The notes below the pieces were generated by a model. The model did no database searches, was not told where the DNA came from, and saw only the letters and a program-made list of their open reading frames with translations. Source: Candidatus Omnitrophota bacterium (lineage in GTDB: Bacteria; Omnitrophota; Gorgyraeia; Gorgyraeales; Gorgyraeaceae). Taken from it: a DNA stretch of 55,119 nucleotides. Each line of letters opens with the position of its first letter. Position 1 is the stretch's first letter. The DNA is taken from positions 1 through 55,119 of the forward strand of contig JBAZEP010000007.1 of assembly GCA_041653835.1 (NCBI GenBank). Direction: 5' to 3'. The position numbers and the translations under genes are program-made. Positions 1,782 through 53,864 of this stretch are shown here, piece after piece.

Positions 1782-3713
1782 TCAATCTATAAATTCTCTG
1801 TGCCATAGTTCCAGGAACAATAAACTCCAAATCCTGGCGCCGTTATTGGCCCTGGCCGCTACATGCTCATCCAAAAGTCTTTTTACGCTTTCTTTCTTAA
1901 AATAACTTCTCTTAAGGCTTTTTTCACTCATTAAAACCTCATAGGCATAATTTTTCAGTTCCACCCTGAACCATTTATCAACAGGGATACCGAACCCCAT
2001 TTTTCCCCTTCCGAGTATCTCTTCAGGAAGTTTCCCATGCAAAGACTTTTTAAGTATATATTTAAGTTTCATGCCCTTTATTTTCATATTGCTCGGCATG
2101 GCGGCGCAAAACTCCATCATCTTATGGTCCAGGAACGGAGACCTTCCTTCCAGCGAATTCGCCATTGTAGCGATATCCATCTTTACAAGCAGATCGTCCA
2201 GCAGGTTGGTTTTTATATCCGCGTACATCACTTTATCGACCACGTCAGGCGAGCCGCATTCATTAAACGCCGTATTCAAATAATCGAAAGAATGCCTGGC
2301 GGATATTTCTTTATTAAATTCATCGGTAAATAGACTATCCTTTTCATGATTATTAAATATAGCCATCCAATTGTAATGCCTTTTTTTGTATGGTTCAGAC
2401 AATTCCATTAGAAATCTTCTAGTTCTTGCTCTAGAATCTTTAACCCCTAAAGATTCAGGTATTTTCCTAATAATCAGTTTTATGATACTTTCCTTAAACG
2501 GAACTGGTATTCTATTGAGTAATTCCGCATATTTGGCTGCCATGAACCTTTCATACCCTCCAAAACATTCATCCCCGCCGTCGCCATTAAGTGCTACCGT
2601 CACTTCCTGTCTGGTCATTTGAGCTACATAATAACTTGGAAGCGCCGAAGAATCAGCGTAAGGCTCATTATAATGCCATACGAGTTTCGGCAGAAGTTCT
2701 ATCGCATTTGGTTTTACAATATATTCGCGGTGCTCTGTCTTAAATCTATCCGAGATAATCCTCGCGTATTTTAACTCACTGTATTTCTCTTCATTAAAGC
2801 CTATAGAAAACGTTTTTACGGGTTTTGAGTTTAATTTGCTCATCATATAAACTACCACGCTTGAATCTATGCCACCGCTTAAAAATGCCCCGAGCGGCAC
2901 ATCGCTTATAAGCCTGATCTTAGTGCATTCCTCAAGAAGTTCCATTGTCCTGTCACAATAATCTTCTTCGGACATCCTGATCTTCCTGGAAAAATCCAGT
3001 TCCCAGTATTTTTCTAATTTTATATTACCTTTTTCATATATCATAAAATGCGCGGGAGGCAGTTTCATAATATTTTTAAACGCGGTTTCAGGAGTCGGCA
3101 CATATCCATAGCTCAAATAGTCTGTTATGGTAGGCCTATTGACTTCCACAGATGTTTCAGGATCCTGAAGAATGGATTTAATTTCAGAAGCGAAAGTTAG
3201 TGTTTGATTTTTATAAGTATAAAATAGGGGCTTTTTACCGATCCTGTCTCTCGCGATAAAAAGCCTATCTTTATGGCTATCCCATATAGCGAAAGCGAAC
3301 GGGCCTCTCATATCTTTAAGGCATTCTACGCCTTTATCCTCATATAAATGCAATACCATTTCGGTATCGGTATGGGATTTAAACCTGTGGCCTTTTTTCT
3401 CAAGCGCTTTTTTTAATTCTAAAAAATTATAGATCTCTCCATTCAGGACTATCCAAATAGCGCCATCTTCATTGCTCATAGGCTGATGCCCGGCAGGTGA
3501 TAAGTCAATAATAGCGAGCCTCCTATGCCCCAGCCCAACACTAACAGAACTGCTACTGCCAATACTGTTCGAGCGAGACCGCGAAGCGGCCGAGTCGAGA
3601 ACTTCTACTCCCTCGCTATCCGGCCCTCTATGCACTAAAACCTCACACATTTTACGTATGAGGTTTTCACTGACCACGCTATTTAAGCTGATCTTCCCGC
3701 ATATTCCGCACAT
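1782..3713 (-). CDS. asnB: Asparagine synthase (glutamine-hydrolysing) family amidotransferase, probably glycan amidation; carries an in-frame repeat-derived insert
   Basis: Ntn start MCGICG (true ATG at 3713, not 3755), HRGPD, LGHRRLAIID, NGEIYN, RDRIGKKPL, LSGGIDSS, GDGGDECFGGY. Confidence 0.93.
   Translation of the reverse strand: MCGICGKISLNSVVSENLIRKMCEVLVHRGPDSEGVEVLDSAASRSRSNSIGSSSSVSVGLGHRRLAIIDLSPAGHQPMSNEDGAIWIVLNGEIYNFLELKKALEKKGHRFKSHTDTEMVLHLYEDKGVECLKDMRGPFAFAIWDSHKDRLFIARDRIGKKPLFYTYKNQTLTFASEIKSILQDPETSVEVNRPTITDYLSYGYVPTPETAFKNIMKLPPAHFMIYEKGNIKLEKYWELDFSRKIRMSEEDYCDRTMELLEECTKIRLISDVPLGAFLSGGIDSSVVVYMMSKLNSKPVKTFSIGFNEEKYSELKYARIISDRFKTEHREYIVKPNAIELLPKLVWHYNEPYADSSALPSYYVAQMTRQEVTVALNGDGGDECFGGYERFMAAKYAELLNRIPVPFKESIIKLIIRKIPESLGVKDSRARTRRFLMELSEPYKKRHYNWMAIFNNHEKDSLFTDEFNKEISARHSFDYLNTAFNECGSPDVVDKVMYADIKTNLLDDLLVKMDIATMANSLEGRSPFLDHKMMEFCAAMPSNMKIKGMKLKYILKKSLHGKLPEEILGRGKMGFGIPVDKWFRVELKNYAYEVLMSEKSLKRSYFKKESVKRLLDEHVAARANNGARIWSLLFLELWHREFID
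3560..3602. repeat. Half-copy of the TTCTCGAC/GTCGAGAA palindromic repeat inside the asnB reading frame
   Basis: CAATACTGTTCGAGCGA-gaccgcgaagcggccg-AGTCGAGAAC matches the right arms at 47739-47790, 48139-48190 and 51080-51105. Translated on the minus strand as VLDSAASRSRSNSI. Confidence 0.85.
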
Positions 3714-3714
3714 A

Positions 3715-4695
3715 TCAATCTTTTCTTCCTGCGATAATAGTAATATTTGGCGCAAAGTATCCGATATTGCCTAGCCTTAACGCCTGTTCTATTTTAGATA
3801 TCCGGTAAAACAATATCCTGAGAATAAAATTTTTCCAATCCAAAAACCATGGGCTTGGATATTGATAATAATGACCTACATATTTATGCCAGGCAGGTAG
3901 TTGTATAGGCCTGCCAATAATGACTTTTTTTATCTTGAACCCGCACGATCCAAGCATGGCCTTTAAAGTATCGTGAGAATAATGTATGACGTGCTCATAA
4001 GAATCGAATATGTCGTGGTCTTTAAGCCTGCCCATGCTCTTGGCAAGCTTTAGTTTTAGTAGATTATAACTTCCATTTGGGACTTTTATGAAAAGTATGC
4101 CGTCTTTTTTAAGTACTTTTTTTATATCCGCTAGTAATTTTTTGGGCTCTGCTATATGTTCGAACACATCTGTCATCGTGACTATGTCAAAAGACCCATC
4201 CTCGAAACCAGCTTTATCCAGATAGGTGGTCTTGACGTTCAGACCAAAATATTTCCTGGCTATTTCGGATAGCGCTGGAGACGGGTCCACTCCAGTGACA
4301 TCCCATTTTTTTCCCCTGGTATGCCTAAGGAAAAACCCCATATTAGTGCCAATATCCAAAAAATTCCCGCTAGGCTTATATTTTTCTATTATTTTCAGGT
4401 CTTCTATATAATTAATATCCCTGTGATGTTTAGCAGAACCATTGAACACCATCCTTGCTTCTTCATAGTACCTCGCCTCATCTCCCCAGTAATTTTTCTC
4501 GGGCTCTTTCAGCATAGGGCTCACATATATAAGATCGCACTTTTTACACCTCACTATACCGATACTACCCCTCTCAGTATAGACCTTGGCGCTATCCTTG
4601 CTATTACAGAAAGGACAATCCCTTTCCATGACCTCTTCCGGGCCATAGTATGATTTCTGCTTTCCGCCTTTTTTATAATTATCAGATGTTTGCAT
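3715..4695 (-). CDS. Class I SAM-dependent methyltransferase with N-terminal Cys-pair (Zn-ribbon-like) region
   Basis: CPFC...CKKC; motif I FLDIGTNMG; FDIVTMTDVFEHI. Confidence 0.85.
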   Translation of the reverse strand: MQTSDNYKKGGKQKSYYGPEEVMERDCPFCNSKDSAKVYTERGSIGIVRCKKCDLIYVSPMLKEPEKNYWGDEARYYEEARMVFNGSAKHHRDINYIEDLKIIEKYKPSGNFLDIGTNMGFFLRHTRGKKWDVTGVDPSPALSEIARKYFGLNVKTTYLDKAGFEDGSFDIVTMTDVFEHIAEPKKLLADIKKVLKKDGILFIKVPNGSYNLLKLKLAKSMGRLKDHDIFDSYEHVIHYSHDTLKAMLGSCGFKIKKVIIGRPIQLPAWHKYVGHYYQYPSPWFLDWKNFILRILFYRISKIEQALRLGNIGYFAPNITIIAGRKD

Positions 4696-46136: not shown

Positions 46137-47798
46137 TTAGAACCTCCTTGTTACTTCCGCGCCGAGGATATGGTTTTTGGCGCTCAAAGCGGTATTCTCG
46201 AAATTTTCTATATCGTCAAATTCGTAAAACAGGGTTACGTCTACATTATTTACATTATACATCTTTAACCCGTTAATAACAGTAAATTCTAATTTTATTT
46301 GATCCGTGGTTTCTATGAATACCCTGGTAAGGCCGCTTCTCATATGGCTGAAAGTAAAGCTCGCCCGGTATTCCTCCGGAAAGCTGAATATGGCGCTAAG
46401 CGCGATATCCTCCGAATCTCCTCCAGCGTGATGGCCTATAAAATTTCCCTTACGGGTATAGCCCGATGTGTATTTAAAATGCGAGTAAAAGGCCTCGTGG
46501 AATTTAGCTATCTCGGCCTTTACATCAAAACCCGGGATCTTGAATACATCCGTGAAATACGCGCCTATTATATGCGCGAGGTCCACCGGCACGCTTTTCG
46601 CCTCGTCTTCCGCCCCCCATTCCATATAAAGTTTCGCGCCTGTGGCTATGGGCAAAAACCTGTCTATGCGCCTCAGGAACAACTGGACATCCCCTGACAT
46701 GATATGGTTTTCAGGGTCATCCGCTCCGCCGCCCGAGCTGAAGAAAAGAGAGCTGTTGCCTACAAAATCATTGAAACCATATCTATTGACGCCTTTGCCG
46801 CCGAACATCAGGATATGGCCGACGCCGAATTTTAAGAACTCCGACGGTATATAGTCCAGTTTCCATCCCGAGACCAGGGCATGCGGAAGGTTGAATTTTT
46901 TGTCCATCCTTGAAATAAACCATGTACCGCTCCACCTGCCCATCTTTTTGAAAATCCCTGGAAGCCTGAAAGGCCGGATGTTATTGATCCTTAAAGCATC
47001 CATGGGAAAGGCATTGTCGGTCATAAGTATCGAGCCGTGAAAACCCGGGCCCCACCACGCGGAAGTCCTCCCGATAGAAAATTCCGTGTTCCAGCCACGG
47101 GGATTTATCCTTAAATGAGCGTTTTCGATATTCAGGTCTGTATCGTCCTTGGAATATCTTATGCCGGGGGTAATTGATACGGCGTATAAGTCAGCGAGTT
47201 TCGCCCAGCCTGTAACTTTGATCCTGGAGTTGATACCGTCTTTTAAAACCCATCCATCCTTGTTTTCGAACAGCATGTTGTCTGAATCAAACACGCCGTA
47301 TGCCTGTTCAACGCTCATGTCGCTGATAAGTCTTATTGTATTTTTAGGAAGAGGCTGGTCAAAAGTACTCGCGACCTCAACGCCTATATCGACAAGCTCC
47401 ACCCTGAACTCATCTATCAATTTATTCAAAAGTGTTTCAAGGTAATCCTGCTCGTTCCATTCGAATTCTCCACTATAATCCCTTGCCTTGTCAATGGCGG
47501 TCTTTACGATATTAGCCATTTTAATACGTGAGACAGGCCTTATGCCGATATCCGCGATATCGCACAGCCCGACAATGGCCAGTTTTTCTATGGCGTCGTA
47601 ACTCCAGTGGCGTAAGGGGACATCGACGGAAGGGGAAGCGTAACACTCGCTGGCTACAAAAAGAATTGTTACAAATAATATTGTTCGAGCGAGGTCAAAT
47701 ATTCTTCTCGACTTCGCTCGAAGAGTATTGTGTCTATCCAATATTGTTCGAGCGAACATCGTTTCCAGGCATGTGAGCTTAGTCGAGAACCTTACCAT
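46137..47798 (-). CDS. wzi: Capsule assembly Wzi-family outer-membrane protein; N-terminus built from repeat DNA
   Basis: SIGRTSAWWGPGFHGSILMTDNA, YMEWGAED, IGHHAGGDS, terminal F. Start chosen at ATG 47798 overlapping the GIY-YIG stop (alternative ATG 47759); the track start at 47849 overlaps the nuclease gene. Confidence 0.8.
   Translation of the reverse strand: MVRFSTKLTCLETMFARTILDRHNTLRAKSRRIFDLARTILFVTILFVASECYASPSVDVPLRHWSYDAIEKLAIVGLCDIADIGIRPVSRIKMANIVKTAIDKARDYSGEFEWNEQDYLETLLNKLIDEFRVELVDIGVEVASTFDQPLPKNTIRLISDMSVEQAYGVFDSDNMLFENKDGWVLKDGINSRIKVTGWAKLADLYAVSITPGIRYSKDDTDLNIENAHLRINPRGWNTEFSIGRTSAWWGPGFHGSILMTDNAFPMDALRINNIRPFRLPGIFKKMGRWSGTWFISRMDKKFNLPHALVSGWKLDYIPSEFLKFGVGHILMFGGKGVNRYGFNDFVGNSSLFFSSGGGADDPENHIMSGDVQLFLRRIDRFLPIATGAKLYMEWGAEDEAKSVPVDLAHIIGAYFTDVFKIPGFDVKAEIAKFHEAFYSHFKYTSGYTRKGNFIGHHAGGDSEDIALSAIFSFPEEYRASFTFSHMRSGLTRVFIETTDQIKLEFTVINGLKMYNVNNVDVTLFYEFDDIENFENTALSAKNHILGAEVTRRF
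47677..47692. repeat. Partial arm of the palindromic repeat within the wzi signal-peptide region
   Basis: AATATTGTTCGAGCGA, identical to 47740-47755 and 51080-51095. Confidence 0.75.
47704..47790. repeat. Palindromic repeat copy 1 (downstream of GIY-YIG gene)
   Basis: C-TTCTCGACT-TCGCTCGAAGAGTATTG-tgtctatc-CAATATTGTTCGAGCGA-[25 nt]-AGTCGAGAA-C; nested inverted repeats. Confidence 0.9.
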
Positions 47799-48064
47799 TC
47801 TTTTTTCCATTCCCCTTTTATGAGTTTCTCTTTCTTTTCCCGATTCCAATCCTTGATTTGCTTCTCTCTCTTTCTCGCTTCTTCTATATTTTCATGTTCT
47901 TCGATATAAACAATTTTTTTCACGCCATGTATAGAAGTATATTTACTTCCCATCCCTGAAATATGCTGATCATATCTAAGATAAGGCTGCCATGTCATCC
48001 CTGTATAATATGTCCCATCTTTACATTCAATGATATAAATATACCATTTCCATGGTTCTTTCAT
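47792..48064 (-). CDS. Stand-alone GIY-YIG nuclease (UPF0213/YhbQ-like), 90 aa
   Basis: WYIYIIECKDGTYYTGMT (GIY-YIG motifs), LRYDQH (catalytic Arg region), EARKREKQIK (metal-binding Glu). Confidence 0.9.
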   Translation of the reverse strand: MKEPWKWYIYIIECKDGTYYTGMTWQPYLRYDQHISGMGSKYTSIHGVKKIVYIEEHENIEEARKREKQIKDWNREKKEKLIKGEWKKEW

Positions 48065-48077
48065 AAAACACTATTAA

Positions 48078-48190
48078 CTTCTCGACTTTGCTAACGTATT
48101 ATGCCTTCACGTCTGCTCGAAGAATATTGTGTCCATTCCAATATTGTTCGAGCAGAAATATTGCGTATACACGTAACCTTGGTCGAGAAC
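48078..48190. repeat. Palindromic repeat copy 2 (upstream of GIY-YIG gene)
   Basis: C-TTCTCGACT-[25 nt]-CTGCTCGAAGAATATTG-tgtccattc-CAATATTGTTCGAGCAG-[25 nt]-GGTCGAGAA-C. Confidence 0.9.
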
Positions 48191-51041: not shown

Positions 51042-51105
51042 CTTCTCGACTTCGTTCGCTTTGCTCACTTCGCTCGAAGAATATTGTTCGAGCGAAGTCG
51101 AGAAC
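51042..51105. repeat. Palindromic repeat copy 3 (directly after the dehydrogenase stop codon)
   Basis: C-TTCTCGACT-[18 nt tcgttcgctttgctcact]-TCGCTCGAAGAATATTGTTCGAGCGA-AGTCGAGAA-C. Confidence 0.9.
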
Positions 51106-53864
51106 TATAATTTAATTATATTCTTCGCGTTCCTGAAATTCTTCAACGCGTTGCGCGTGTCAAATACAAGACCCGCGTTATCTAAAATAAATTTATAATC
51201 TATGCCGGAATGGTCCGTGATGATCACTGTTAAATCGCTTATGGAGATATTTTCTTTCGTAAGTTTGACTGTATTTATTTTTTTGCCGTCTATCTGGAAA
51301 CTCGATACCAGGGGATCATGGCAGTAAACATGCGCGCCCTTCTTGATAAGGGAACTTACTATTTCAAGCGCGGGCGATTCCCTGATGTCATTTATATCCT
51401 TTTTATAAGTAACGCCTATTATCAGGATGTTGGACCCCTCAAGGGATTTTTTCTTTTTACTGAGGATGGAAATTATTTTATCCATTACATAATGCGGCAT
51501 ATAAGAATTTATCTCGTCCGCCAGTTCAATAAACCTTGCCTCGAACCCATGCTGTCTCGCCTTCCATGACAGATATAGGGGGTCGAGTGGGATGCAATTA
51601 TGAGAAATTATCCCGTAAGAAGAAACGAACGTATTGGTATCCTCTACTTCAAGTGAATAGACTTTCTTGAGATTTATTTTATTTATACTTTTTATCCTTG
51701 AAGTTACAAATCCTTCATAAGTTTTAAATATTTTGCTTTTTGGGGCCCTGATTTTATTTTTAATATACAGGTCTATTTTTTCATCCTTCCTGCCTGCCAG
51801 CAATCCCTTCAGTTTCATTATATTCTCAAGCCCTGATATATTAATAAGTCCTTTTCGAACTTTAAAAGTAGGCATTATGCCAAGGCTTTGTAAAAGAAAA
51901 ATTACCTGGTGAAAAAGAACAGAGCTGCAGGAAAAATAATTGGCGCTTAATGAATTGGAATTATGCTGATAGAGCTTGCCATTCTTTCTGTAACTCATTT
52001 TTCCGCATTTATAGTCTACTCCTCCATCGCCTCTCAACAGTCCGGCTAAAAGATTTTTTCTATAATTAACGGGAAAACCTAAAAAGGCTTCAGGTATTTT
52101 CATAGAGTGTGAGTTAACGCCGCAGCTTAAAATATCCCTTATCAATATCCCAAAAATATCTGAAGAAGCTTTAATACAGTTCGTATGCCATTTTTTAGAA
52201 TGATATTCGGAATAACGGAGCCCCATCTTATTTAGAATATTTTCAACGTCCTGTATATATTCTTTCTCGTCTCTATTGAATGAAAACCTGGTTCTGGTAG
52301 ATTTATCTACCGTAACGCACCCTTCGCTAAGATAATAACCTATAAGCCTGCAGAAATCTTCGTCTATTAAAATAGAAGCCGGGAATCTTACCTGCGACGG
52401 CCCCCTGCCCGTACATAAAGATAGTTCTTTGGCGGTAACCTCTTTCAGGCTGTTTTTTATTTCCAGATAAATATCAAGGGGTATCTGATTGCATCTGTAA
52501 AAATCATCGTAATTTTTATATTTATCTTTTACCAAAGGAGTAATCAAATTCCTGTATTCTTTCCAGGAAAAACTTTTTGATTCAACACGTATTTTTTTCT
52601 TTATAGGGTTATTGCTGCTTGCAAGGTATTCTATAATATCTATCTCTATAGGTGTATTACCGATTTCTTTTTCTGGAAAGTTATTTATCAGCGGCATTTC
52701 TTCGCCTGGTTTTAAATCTTTCGCAAGTTTAACCGCTAATTTTCCATTTTGCACAAAAAGAGGATGTTTGTCCGTAACCTTTATAGACCTGTTATCCGTT
52801 GTTTTAATCTCTAACGAAACGCCGTCGTATTTGCGCTCCGTAAGGCAATGGACATTTTTAAAAACCAGTTTTCTGGAATTAGGATCGAATGACAAGGTAG
52901 ATATATCTTTAGGAAAGATAAAAAGAACGTCTCTATAATACATCTTTTTTATCTCGGGGGCTTCTTTTAATTCCGCAAAAATTTCTCCGATCCTGGTGAG
53001 TTTTAGGCCTTTTGTATCTTTTATTAATAGAAATTCATCCTCACTTAAACAGTGCCCGCCTATGCCGGGGCCGGGATAAAAGGGCATGAAGCCGAAAGGT
53101 TTTGTCTTCGCGGCGTCTATGATCTCCCAGACATTAAGGCCCATCTTGTGGCACATAAGCGCGAGTTCGTTTACCATGGCTATATTGACGCTGCGGAAGG
53201 TGTTCTCCAGGAGTTTTACCATCTCCGCCGAACGCGTCGAAGACACAGGCACGACCTCTTTTATCGCCTGGGAATATAAAAGCCTGGCGAGCTCTGTACA
53301 TTCAGGCGTTACCCCGCCCACGATCTTGGTGATATCTTTTGTTTTATATTTAGGGTTGCCCGGATCCACCCTCTCAGGAGAGAACGCCAGGAAGAAATCT
53401 TTGCCGACCTTTAAACCGTCCACGTCTAATTTGGGCAGAATGACCTCTTCAGTCGTGCCCGGGTAAGTGGTGCTTTCCAGGATCACGAGCTGGCCTTTCC
53501 TTTTGTTTTTGGCTATTGCCTCGCTCGCCGACAGGATATAAGAAATATCCGGCTCTTTTGTCTTACGCAGAGGCGTAGGAACGCAGATGATAATGGCGTC
53601 CATTTTATTAAGTAGTTTAGTGTCTGTGGTGGCTTTTAATTTGCCGGAAGAAACAAGCTCCTTTACGTCTTTCGCCGGCACATCGAGTATATAAGACTCG
53701 CCTTTATTGATACTGGATACTTTATTCTCATCGTTATCGAAACCCGTGACCTTGAAACCCGCTTTCGCGAATTCCACAGCCAGGGGAAGCCCGACATAGC
53801 CCTGGCCTATGATCCCTATATTAGCCTTTTTATTCTCTATTTTCTTTTTTAATTCGTTAAACAT
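51105..53864 (-). CDS. UDP-N-acetylhexosamine 6-dehydrogenase (WbpA/WecC/TviB family) interrupted by an intein; 434 aa after splicing
   Basis: GQGYVGLP, ICVPTP, ESTTYPGTT, SPERVDPG, KLLENTFR, GPGIGGH|C, YKKDINDIRESPA. Confidence 0.93.
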   Translation of the reverse strand: MFNELKKKIENKKANIGIIGQGYVGLPLAVEFAKAGFKVTGFDNDENKVSSINKGESYILDVPAKDVKELVSSGKLKATTDTKLLNKMDAIIICVPTPLRKTKEPDISYILSASEAIAKNKRKGQLVILESTTYPGTTEEVILPKLDVDGLKVGKDFFLAFSPERVDPGNPKYKTKDITKIVGGVTPECTELARLLYSQAIKEVVPVSSTRSAEMVKLLENTFRSVNIAMVNELALMCHKMGLNVWEIIDAAKTKPFGFMPFYPGPGIGGHCLSEDEFLLIKDTKGLKLTRIGEIFAELKEAPEIKKMYYRDVLFIFPKDISTLSFDPNSRKLVFKNVHCLTERKYDGVSLEIKTTDNRSIKVTDKHPLFVQNGKLAVKLAKDLKPGEEMPLINNFPEKEIGNTPIEIDIIEYLASSNNPIKKKIRVESKSFSWKEYRNLITPLVKDKYKNYDDFYRCNQIPLDIYLEIKNSLKEVTAKELSLCTGRGPSQVRFPASILIDEDFCRLIGYYLSEGCVTVDKSTRTRFSFNRDEKEYIQDVENILNKMGLRYSEYHSKKWHTNCIKASSDIFGILIRDILSCGVNSHSMKIPEAFLGFPVNYRKNLLAGLLRGDGGVDYKCGKMSYRKNGKLYQHNSNSLSANYFSCSSVLFHQVIFLLQSLGIMPTFKVRKGLINISGLENIMKLKGLLAGRKDEKIDLYIKNKIRAPKSKIFKTYEGFVTSRIKSINKINLKKVYSLEVEDTNTFVSSYGIISHNCIPLDPLYLSWKARQHGFEARFIELADEINSYMPHYVMDKIISILSKKKKSLEGSNILIIGVTYKKDINDIRESPALEIVSSLIKKGAHVYCHDPLVSSFQIDGKKINTVKLTKENISISDLTVIITDHSGIDYKFILDNAGLVFDTRNALKNFRNAKNIIKL
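51597..53051 (-). mobile_element. 485-aa intein with LAGLIDADG homing endonuclease (residues 272-756)
   Basis: Block A CLSEDEFLLI; block B VTDKHPLF (TxxH); LAGLIDADG RLIGYYLSEG and LLAGLLRGDG; block F VYSLEVEDTNTF; ends SHN before Cys+1. Removal restores GPGIGGHCIPLDP. Confidence 0.95.

Follow-up and report, generated by a model that had tools for sequence, protein, structure and literature searches.

A small dispersed DNA hairpin, read in frame as a loop of an AsnB-family amidotransferase and linked to a GIY-YIG nuclease gene, in an Omnitrophota bacterium

To our knowledge, in-frame palindromic insertions into protein-coding genes are textbook material for Rickettsia only. In the summary of Ogata et al. 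2000 given in PMC10969869, Rickettsia palindromic elements (RPEs) are units of ~100–150 bp that lie in frame, often in essential genes, and are translated. Systems of repetitive extragenic palindromic (REP) sequences, REPINs, and REP-associated tyrosine transposases (RAYTs) have been described as mostly vertically inherited (PMC3116915, PMC3337134, PMC3733652). For the stand-alone prokaryotic branch of the Slx1 family of GIY-YIG nucleases, function was given as unknown, and members of the wider superfamily, beyond the known selfish endonucleases, were considered possible molecular parasites (PMC1564403). Here, we analyse 55,119 nucleotides (nt) from a Candidatus Omnitrophota bacterium (positions 1 to 55,119 of contig JBAZEP010000007.1, assembly GCA_041653835.1; hereafter "the window"), in which a gene for an AsnB-family glutamine amidotransferase (asnB) contains 42 bases that represent a single copy of a DNA hairpin that is small, dispersed, and probably mobile. 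Taken as a whole, the reading that we consider very probable is that this hairpin is small and dispersed, forms an in-frame loop of AsnB, and belongs to a family linked to a stand-alone GIY-YIG nuclease gene.

The asnB gene (1782..3713, minus strand) encodes 643 amino acids (aa) starting MCGICG. Its product matches Pfam Asn_synthase (5e-99), GATase_7 (1.5e-47), and GATase_6, exceeds the NCBIfam cut-off for TIGR01536, and scores highest against TIGR03108, a model for an exopolysaccharide (EPS)-type amidotransferase. The protein joins an N-terminal-Cys glutaminase domain of the N-terminal nucleophile (Ntn) type to an Asn_synthase domain, as AsnB-family proteins do, and retains all invariant columns of 78 orthologues. 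The start codon is the ATG at 3713-3711, one base past the stop codon (3715-3717) of the upstream methyltransferase gene; a mechanical listing of open reading frames (ORFs) gave the TTG at 3755, which was rejected in favour of this ATG, from which MCGICG is read.

On the plus strand, 3561..3602 reads AATACTGTTCGAGCGA-gaccgcgaagcggccg-AGTCGAGAAC. Its reverse complement, GTT CTC GAC TCG GCC GCT TCG CGG TCT CGC TCG AAC AGT ATT, encodes VLDSAASRSRSNSI in frame with the minus-strand asnB gene, corresponding to AsnB residues 38-51 and including the peptides VLDSAASR and SNSIGSSSSVSVGLGHR. These bases make up one hairpin unit of the repeat (3561..3602, plus strand), i.e., a tag AATACT (3561-3566) followed by a G-type, 36-nt imperfect hairpin (3567-3602) that can be written G-TTCGAGCGA-[GACCGC GAA GCGGCC G]-AGTCGAGAA-C; every position fits the covariation model set out below, the apical stem containing a single A.C mismatch. 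A Ser-rich extension, GSSSSVS (3540..3560, minus strand; AsnB residues 52-58), separates the hairpin from the conserved VGLGHRRL; it is part of the net insertion, and no second hairpin is recognisable in it. The IG..V junction of the insert is common to the orthologues P0007 (IGGVSVGL) and P0006 (IGAGV...). Since the inserted DNA is a multiple of three in length and the consensus is free of stop codons, asnB remains open, and translation of the hairpin yields a loop. An initial annotation of the window had proposed that half of a palindromic repeat is inserted in frame within asnB at 3560-3602. Sequence, frame, and family membership were all borne out, as were the site and the 3602 end; the true start is 3561, one base later, and the asnB copy is not half of a palindrome but a complete, functional-looking unit consisting of one tagged hairpin, the two-hairpin form being found in other orthologues.

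The anatomy of this unit is defined by its other copies. Species-representative genomes searched with the pattern TATTSTTCGAGCGA-N(0-30)-AGTCGAGAA gave at least 118 stretches; anatomy was measured on 146 copies, and a relaxed anchor yielded 312 matches, of which ~7% are noise. The unit opens with a 5′ tag, AATATT in 51 of the 146 copies and an A/T-rich variant in the remainder. An imperfect hairpin comes next, S-TTCGAGCGA-[variable stem-loop]-G-AGTCGAGAA-S′, in which S and S′ directly follow the tag and box 2, respectively, and close the stem. This outermost pair covaries: 83 copies have C..G and 58 have G..C, and the remaining 5 have no pair. Between the boxes, the apical part has a length of 0 in 37 copies and of 8 nt in 43, up to a maximum of ~28 nt; its last base is G in 92 of 107 copies, and self-pairing is seen in 62%, compared with 18% of shuffled controls. 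Two inner pairs covary as well: under the relaxed anchor, the position 7 pair is GC in 243 matches and CG in 21, the position 8 pair is CG in 229, TA in 16, and TG in 14, and the opposed purines are G.A in 204 and A.G in 165. Besides the opposed purines, a single unpaired T is conserved. The model that we put forward, 5'-tag-S-TT-CGAG-CGA-[stem-loop]-GAG-T-CGAG-AA-S', would include this T and two tandem G.A motifs, whose pairing is predicted from these counts.

Units of 20–50 nt occur singly or as head-to-head doublets of 46–105 nt joined at the tag, and the doublets always combine one G-type with one C-type hairpin to give a longer palindrome (e.g., 51042-51105 and 48078-48190 in the window, and L001:1017-1086). 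Hairpins nested in the apical loops of hairpins of the same family were also seen at L012:6290-6360 and L024:6140-6215, as well as in the asnB inserts of P0013, P0076, and P0242; such nesting may be why the apical part varies. Across its tag, boxes, and common apical forms, the consensus unit has zero stop codons in all six frames, a state reached by 2% of composition-matched shuffles, and by 0.3% for the doublet. Searches of Rfam gave no family at the gathering threshold for the whole window, nor any at E <=10 for 47.6-48.25 kb.

In the window, the 16-mer box has seven matches at <=3 mismatches vs 0.32 expected, and the 10-mer box has seven vs 1.7 expected; by a rough analytic estimate, the chance of finding box 1 (<=1 mismatch) with an exact box 2 within the next 30 nt in 55 kb is ~4e-8. 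The other window copies are at 47677-47790, 48078-48190, and 51042-51105. The repeat family placed 44-47 kb away in the earlier annotation is thus real, with a distance from the asnB site of 44-47.5 kb. The 42-base string itself has no second copy in the window at <=3 mismatches, and 100 shuffles gave no match at that threshold, so the chance match that had been named as counter-evidence did not appear. One could still suppose that the resemblance is a coincidence of a low-complexity loop, or that the intergenic copies derive from an asnB fragment, since the loop is indeed rich in Ser/Arg and a truncated duplicate of the asnB 5′ end, complete with insert, exists at L127:3960-4100. This we regard as highly implausible: the asnB copy matches the family in a 16-nt box (one mismatch), a 10-nt box without mismatch, a paired apical stem, the closing G-C pair, and the 5′ tag, none of 100 shuffles reproduced it, the family is present in hundreds of unrelated contexts and phyla, and empty asnB alleles exist.

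The position of the insert within AsnB is well delimited by its relatives. Among 106 full-length orthologues, the stretch from HRGPD to (G)LGHRRL measures 10–40 residues, compared with 589–597 aa for the remainder of the protein, and the loop is the sole large indel site. A 10-residue loop, e.g., SEGVYVKEGI, is the base state; it is present in 24 of the 106 and in nearly all relatives at 42–55% identity, while the empty orthologues with such a loop include L132 and L128a at 77% identity. The closest solved homologue, PDB 7ylz, shows a 17-residue gap opposite AsnB residues 40-56, where ~14 residues had been expected beforehand; the net gain of 17 comprises the 14 hairpin codons plus the Ser-rich GSSSSVS, with the short original turn replaced. 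In an AlphaFold2 model built from 78 orthologues (mean predicted local distance difference test [pLDDT] score of 90.1 overall), the insert occupies the tip of a β-hairpin of the glutaminase domain formed by strands 32-40 and 58-66, with a mean pLDDT of 52 for residues 41-50 and values <50 for residues 48-53. The insert thus appears to form a disordered, Ser/Arg-rich loop, and the model suggests that the loop receiving it is tolerant and probably exposed at the surface. Insertion into a normally short loop, and its location at a β-hairpin tip of low pLDDT within an otherwise confident model, both agree with what the initial annotation had anticipated.

The same element is found well beyond the window. 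In 14 orthologue clusters (57–81% identical to the window AsnB), it sits at the identical site, strand, and frame (VLDS...RSNNI), as confirmed at the DNA level for L001, L122, L123, L124, L126, and L128b. In the asnB genes of L001, L122, and L124, the palindrome is complete, with both of its hairpins (GTTCTCGACT-x-TCGCTCGAACAATATTCTTCGAGCGA-x-AGTCGAGAAG), and translates as VLDS-x-RSNNILRAS-x-SREV; full doublets inside asnB orthologues fold strongly (z −4.5 to −7.3). The apical sequence of the window asnB copy is closest to that of L001 asnB (13/16 nt, with one compensatory A-T → G-C change) and is not close to the intergenic copies of the window itself. The window copy has a changed tag, AATACT, and an A.C mismatch in its apical stem, and it lacks a second hairpin, yet its hairpin is intact. 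It probably came with its asnB allele, whether by inheritance or by allelic recombination, and a recent jump from the hairpins 44 kb away probably did not happen. The insertion had earlier been called recent, which holds in part only: the contrast with empty alleles agrees with an insertion, yet it is not private to this genome, being shared by 14 clusters. As contigs L001, L124, and L128, each with a filled allele, hold additional hairpin copies elsewhere, they are not instances of the same loop in genomes without the repeat, which would have spoken against an insertion.

A neighbour-joining tree of asnB orthologues, built with the loop removed, shows filled, empty, and differently filled alleles interleaved. 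This extends into single protein clusters at >=90% identity, which contain both empty alleles (P0243, P0245 [= L132], P0249, and P0259) and at least four different fillings (P0006, P0247, P0242, and P0004). The filled P0006 is 90–92% identical to the empty P0245, P0243, and P0249, and the filled P0004 is 89% identical to the empty P0259; in each of these comparisons, the loop is the sole internal gap. P0006 and P0247 are 98.5% identical and have differing apical parts. The filled L124 has 102 nt in place of 12 nt of the empty L132. The L128 contig was also noted to encode two asnB paralogues (L128:5288 and L128:12280), one whose loop is empty (NEGVYVKEGI) and one whose loop holds a single hairpin (VLDSAPRSNNI).

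All of the ~190 orthologous genes inspected remain in frame through the loop, which is to be expected only if the segment is translated. P0070 and P0041 were considered as genes broken by the insert and rejected: P0070 is in frame, its short gene call being a mere matter of start-codon choice, and P0041 ends at a contig edge. This preserved frame bears on the possibility that the insert is removed after transcription or translation, as an intron or mini-intein, and is absent from the mature enzyme. An intein in another gene of the window (see below) means that such elements occur in this genome, and the insert does sit in a conserved catalytic domain. However, at 17–30 residues it has neither intein blocks nor nucleophile/HN-Cys boundaries, and it matches no intron or other RNA family in Rfam; an intein or self-splicing intron was rejected on these grounds along with the unfailing frame, and we consider removal of the segment very unlikely.

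A more serious contender is that the hairpin is kept in asnB for a host function, either as a DNA or mRNA structure affecting expression or as a useful loop, following a single ancient entry, vertical descent, and precise losses. This would account for the shared site, strand, and frame in 14 of 14 filled clusters, and the compensatory change between the window and L001 apical stems is in keeping with it, as is the P0076 insert, which is 88% identical to that of P0013 even though the proteins are 45–68% identical elsewhere. Silent sites point the same way: in filled asnB genes, the boxes agree at 25–27 of their 27 nucleotides, and within box codons 65 of 75 four-fold degenerate comparisons are identical, against ~48% for four-fold sites of asnB between filled orthologues, a value near saturation. 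The boxes are therefore not decaying neutrally with asnB, and their conservation may stem from repeated re-insertion, from gene conversion with other copies, or from selection on the nucleic acid. Against a host function stand the interleaving of filled and empty alleles on the tree and within clusters of >=90% identity, the unrelated apical parts of 98.5% identical alleles, and the predicted disorder of the encoded loop. Moreover, intergenic copies across phyla have equally conserved boxes, and this conservation therefore belongs to the element rather than to asnB. Other lineages carry quite different hairpin families or tandem repeats in the AsnB loop, and therefore no single sequence or structure is required there. 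On balance, retention for a host function is improbable, though clearly less so than coincidence or removal.

These other occupants of the AsnB loop fall into at least three further hairpin families, themselves dispersed repeats within the same locus set: ATTGCGAG..GAAGCAAT (peptide DCFV..LAMT; 18 copies in 13 fetched loci), TCATTCCCGC..GCGGGAAT (peptide DSRFRGND; 9 copies in fetched loci), and CCCTCTCCC..GGGAGAGGG (peptide PSPLKGRG; 11 copies in fetched loci). In more distant AsnB relatives, the loop contains tandem repeats of 7–8 nt and no hairpins (L160:10112-10150, L169:10106-10147, and L185:10112-10159, with peptides VKSEGLRVR, SELKTQNSKL, and SHQSPATSHQS, respectively). With short tandem repeats and no fewer than three additional hairpin families among its occupants, the loop is a recurrent hotspot; the surface-loop insertion first proposed for the window therefore holds in substance, while having overlooked this multi-family character. 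The truncated duplicate at L127:3960-4100 (GICGKVSLN ... MTYVGLGH) lies upstream of a glycosyltransferase gene and includes its own insert of the ATTGCGAG..GAAGCAAT family, which suggests rearrangement at or near such inserts. A 46-nt copy of the L127 insert was examined as a free repeat copy and rejected, as it lies in this duplicate.

Beyond asnB, the hairpin is taxonomically widespread. Record titles place it in Omnitrophota, Elusimicrobia, Planctomycetia, Stahlbacteria, Auribacterota, WOR-3, Eisenbacteria, and Actinomycetota, and, among other Patescibacteria, in Doudna-, Davies-, Curtiss-, Gottesman-, Roizman-, Berkel-, and Saccharibacteria; further titles read "Uncultured Gammaproteobacteria" and, for one metagenome-assembled genome (MAG), Nanoarchaeia. 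Exact hairpin matches were seen in contigs L113, L067, L098, and L110, labelled Nanoarchaeia archaeon and Actinomycetota, reflecting either very wide horizontal spread or mis-binned contigs. A scan of IMG/VR viral contigs found no hairpin.

With a coding copy defined as one in a stop-free frame of >=200 codons with >=40 codons on each side, 30 of 144 hairpin copies (about a fifth) lie inside long ORFs. Each of the ten coding copies checked falls in a gene with a clear Pfam match. Seven are inside the matched domain span, namely in SecA (L058), spermidine synthase (L070), TsaD (L120), riboflavin synthase (L118), TatD (L069), an RluA-type pseudouridine synthase (L083), and a GatA-type amidase (L053); two are in inter-domain linkers, of RecJ (L097) and a class I aminoacyl-tRNA synthetase (L115), and one is C-terminal to the Pfam match, in YfhO (L094). 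The claim that the element enters coding sequence and creates new peptides, originally made from asnB, is therefore well supported far beyond that gene.

The second component of the system is a gene between two groups of window hairpins. At 47792..48064 (minus strand), with hairpin doublets on both sides, lies a stand-alone GIY-YIG nuclease gene of the UPF0213/prokaryotic Slx1-like type, encoding 90 aa (Pfam PF01541, 4.6e-16; PDB 1zg2, 1e-14, and 1ywl, 6e-12). Its product is a single GIY-YIG domain of ~90 aa related to BH0048 and EF2693, as is usual for UPF0213/Slx1-like proteins, and is predicted to be a nuclease. On the downstream side are an orphan tag plus box 1 with no box 2 (AATATTGTTCGAGCGA; 47677..47692, plus strand), a C-type hairpin without apical insert (CTTCGAGCGAAGTCGAGAAG) with tag AATACT (47704..47729, minus strand), and a G-type hairpin, tagged AATATT and with 25 nt in its apical part, that abuts the stop codon of the gene (47740..47790, plus strand). 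On the other side, 14 nt upstream of the ATG, lies a tagged C-type hairpin whose box 1 is the variant CTTCGAGCAGA and whose apical part measures 24 nt (48078..48128, minus strand), next to a tag plus a G-type hairpin variant, GTTCGAGCAG...GGTCGAGAAC (48140..48190, plus strand).

This arrangement recurs. Close GIY-YIG homologues, 62–83% identical, span the same range of phyla as the hairpin, and hairpins flank the gene in eight of eight lineages: the window, L012, L024, and all five lineages fetched purely by identity of the GIY-YIG protein (L202-207, Patescibacteria; L208, a Pseudomonadota MAG; L209-214, Gottesmanbacteria; L215/216, Berkelbacteria; and L217). In all eight, a C-type hairpin lies 5–24 nt upstream of the ATG, and the reverse complement of a G-type hairpin begins 0–3 nt past the stop codon or overlaps it. 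Of 31 hairpin calls in the five identity-fetched lineages, 27 are <=210 nt from the gene. The hairpin blocks are often directly repeated on both sides, and the neighbours of the gene differ from lineage to lineage. When ORFs adjoining hairpins were clustered across 118 loci, the GIY-YIG gene was the sole recurrent gene, and no transposase family or parent insertion sequence (IS) was seen. The initial annotation, whose selfish hairpin is retained here, had missed the link to this gene. PLSDB plasmids searched with the GIY-YIG protein gave only homologues of <45% identity. Our literature search returned no link between GIY-YIG proteins and REP- or MITE-type (miniature inverted-repeat transposable element) repeats, and neither the box sequences nor the derived peptides were found in it.

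Distant UPF0213 GIY-YIG genes at L035:4428-4720 and L142:7600-7920, ~32–36% identical to that of the window, were seen to be flanked by unrelated inverted repeats (ATCCCGCACCTTTT / AAAAGGTGCGGGAT, and CCCTGTTAA / TTAACAGGG overlapping the stop codon), hinting that each nuclease subfamily may have its own repeat. Separately, AbiEii and ParE-type toxin genes adjoin asnB or the GIY-YIG gene in L001, L208, L218, and the P0008 contig.

Taken together, the hairpins probably spread as non-autonomous mobile elements. The GIY-YIG nuclease would recognise the mismatch-containing stem, or a cruciform formed by the doublet, and would make a structure- or sequence-specific cut leading to copying or repair-mediated insertion, in a role comparable to that of RAYT for REP/REPIN. 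Genic copies would then persist only where they are a multiple of three in length, free of stop codons, and located in a tolerant surface loop, as for RPEs. A bolder form of this proposal holds that a cross-phylum family of AATATT-tagged G.A-mismatch hairpins is propagated by a 90-aa Slx1-like GIY-YIG nuclease in a REPIN/RAYT-like manner, that selection keeps its six frames stop-free, that the hairpins routinely write new surface loops into essential Omnitrophota and Patescibacteria proteins, and that loops such as the AsnB tip are re-used as landing sites; this extended version we hold as a tentative possibility, somewhat more likely wrong than right.

Several points weigh against even the more restrained reading of a small dispersed hairpin, an in-frame AsnB loop, and a GIY-YIG-linked family. 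We know of no GIY-YIG enzyme with strand transfer activity, most hairpin loci show no GIY-YIG gene within +/-4 kb, and the gene might instead be a separate selfish gene that homes into or targets hairpin arrays. No hairpin gain or loss was seen among near-identical strain contigs (L202-207, L209-214), i.e., no movement was observed, and a target-site duplication, target motif, or exact boundary is not definable in the filled/empty pairs. Nearest-neighbour folding of single units was no better than that of shuffles (z −0.5 to +0.6); the structure rests on covariation, for which each of the few covarying states may stem from one ancestral subfamily, making the structural evidence good but not conclusive. 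The better silent-site conservation of the boxes in asnB also fits selection for host function. Translation of the AsnB loop is deduced from the conserved reading frame, and the phylum labels are those of MAG record titles, for which mis-binned contigs are possible.

Two further gene contexts in the window involve selfish DNA. The wzi-like ORF at 46137-47849 (minus strand) has its likely ATG (47759-47757) within hairpin 47740..47790, and this is the sole in-frame ATG ahead of a signal-peptide-like stretch, ILFVTILFVASECYA. Accordingly placed, ~27 N-terminal codons (MFARTILDRHNTLRAKSRRIFDLARTI) of this wzi-like capsule-assembly protein would be read from hairpin DNA (47677-47776); if true, this would be a second coding use of the hairpin in the window. 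Farther along, a C-type hairpin with an 18-nt apical part plus a shared central tag AATATT (51042..51085, minus strand) and a tag plus G-type hairpin without apical insert (51080..51105, plus strand) form a full head-to-head doublet between two sugar-nucleotide genes. An intein bearing a LAGLIDADG homing-endonuclease domain (Pfam Intein_splicing, aa 310-756; LAGLIDADG_3, aa 506-558) interrupts the adjacent UDP-glucose/GDP-mannose dehydrogenase ORF (51105-53864, minus strand, 919 aa) and represents a second kind of selfish insert in the gene cluster.

Our analysis would thus extend in-frame palindromic insertion to several large uncultivated phyla, in which the unit is far smaller and has a defined structure. 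It also supplies a candidate partner enzyme from UPF0213 and, at a single site, a natural set of alleles that are empty or filled in different ways. Three questions are thereby opened to test: how such elements spread without a transposase, what role stand-alone bacterial GIY-YIG proteins play, and how frequently loops are made by selfish DNA. On a practical level, the hairpins account for odd metagenome peptides and spurious "hypothetical proteins" (...SRLRSNN..., ...YSSSEVEK..., ...ILRAKSR...), as well as for length variation in otherwise conserved proteins.

Set against the known systems, and as far as RPEs are summarised in PMC10969869, the hairpin family shares with them a palindromic form, in-frame placement in unrelated conserved genes at positions tolerated by the fold, and the lack of an encoded transposase; in-frame palindromes compatible with the host protein were found in asnB and ten further ORFs. 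In contrast to the RPEs of that summary, the unit measures 20–50 nt and the doublet 46–105 nt vs ~100–150 bp, and the hosts are not Rickettsia but free-living or episymbiotic members of uncultivated phyla (Omnitrophota, Patescibacteria, and others); the sequence family also appears to differ, the two being set apart here by size and hosts and not by consensus alignment. Also unlike RPEs, as so summarised, are the variable apical part with its nested copies, the linked GIY-YIG gene, and the targeting of one loop by several families.

The architecture is closer to that of REP/REPIN–RAYT systems (PMC3116915, PMC3337134, PMC3733652), in which short imperfect hairpins with a 5′ tag are likewise found as singles and inverted doublets, in numerous dispersed copies per genome and around one small gene. 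However, the tag is AATATT vs GTAG or CGTC, the flanked gene encodes a minimal GIY-YIG protein (UPF0213/Slx1-like) vs a single-copy Y1 HUH transposase, and about a fifth of copies lie inside ORFs, unlike extragenic REPs. The boxes and a 62–83% identical nuclease are moreover common to several phyla, unlike in REPIN–RAYT systems.

With free-standing GIY-YIG homing endonuclease genes (I-TevI-type; PMC12774661) and the Slx1-like group (PMC1564403), the gene shares its catalytic domain, small size, and varied neighbourhoods; unlike the homing endonucleases, it has no DNA-binding extension and no intron or intein context, and it is flanked by hairpins that are also found without it. Like enterobacterial repetitive intergenic consensus (ERIC) and BOX elements and cyanobacterial MITEs (PMC2229807, PMC3184786, PMC10969869), the hairpins are small and non-autonomous, with inverted ends and occasional in-frame ORF fusions. 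Unlike in MITEs, the conserved part is a mismatch-containing hairpin stem vs the terminal inverted repeats of an IS. The outer ends of doublets do form inverted repeats, while the filled/empty pairs allowed no duplication or clean boundary to be defined and no parent IS or transposase relative was seen. Integron attC sites (RYYYAAC ... GTTRRRY, arrayed in a single orientation beside an integrase) were rejected, given boxes GTTCGAG / CTCGAAC, CTTCGAG and an occurrence in both orientations and inside genes; no integrase search was made. Ultimately, the hairpin family resembles RPEs in its effect on proteins and REP/REPIN–RAYT systems in its architecture, and is a member of neither.

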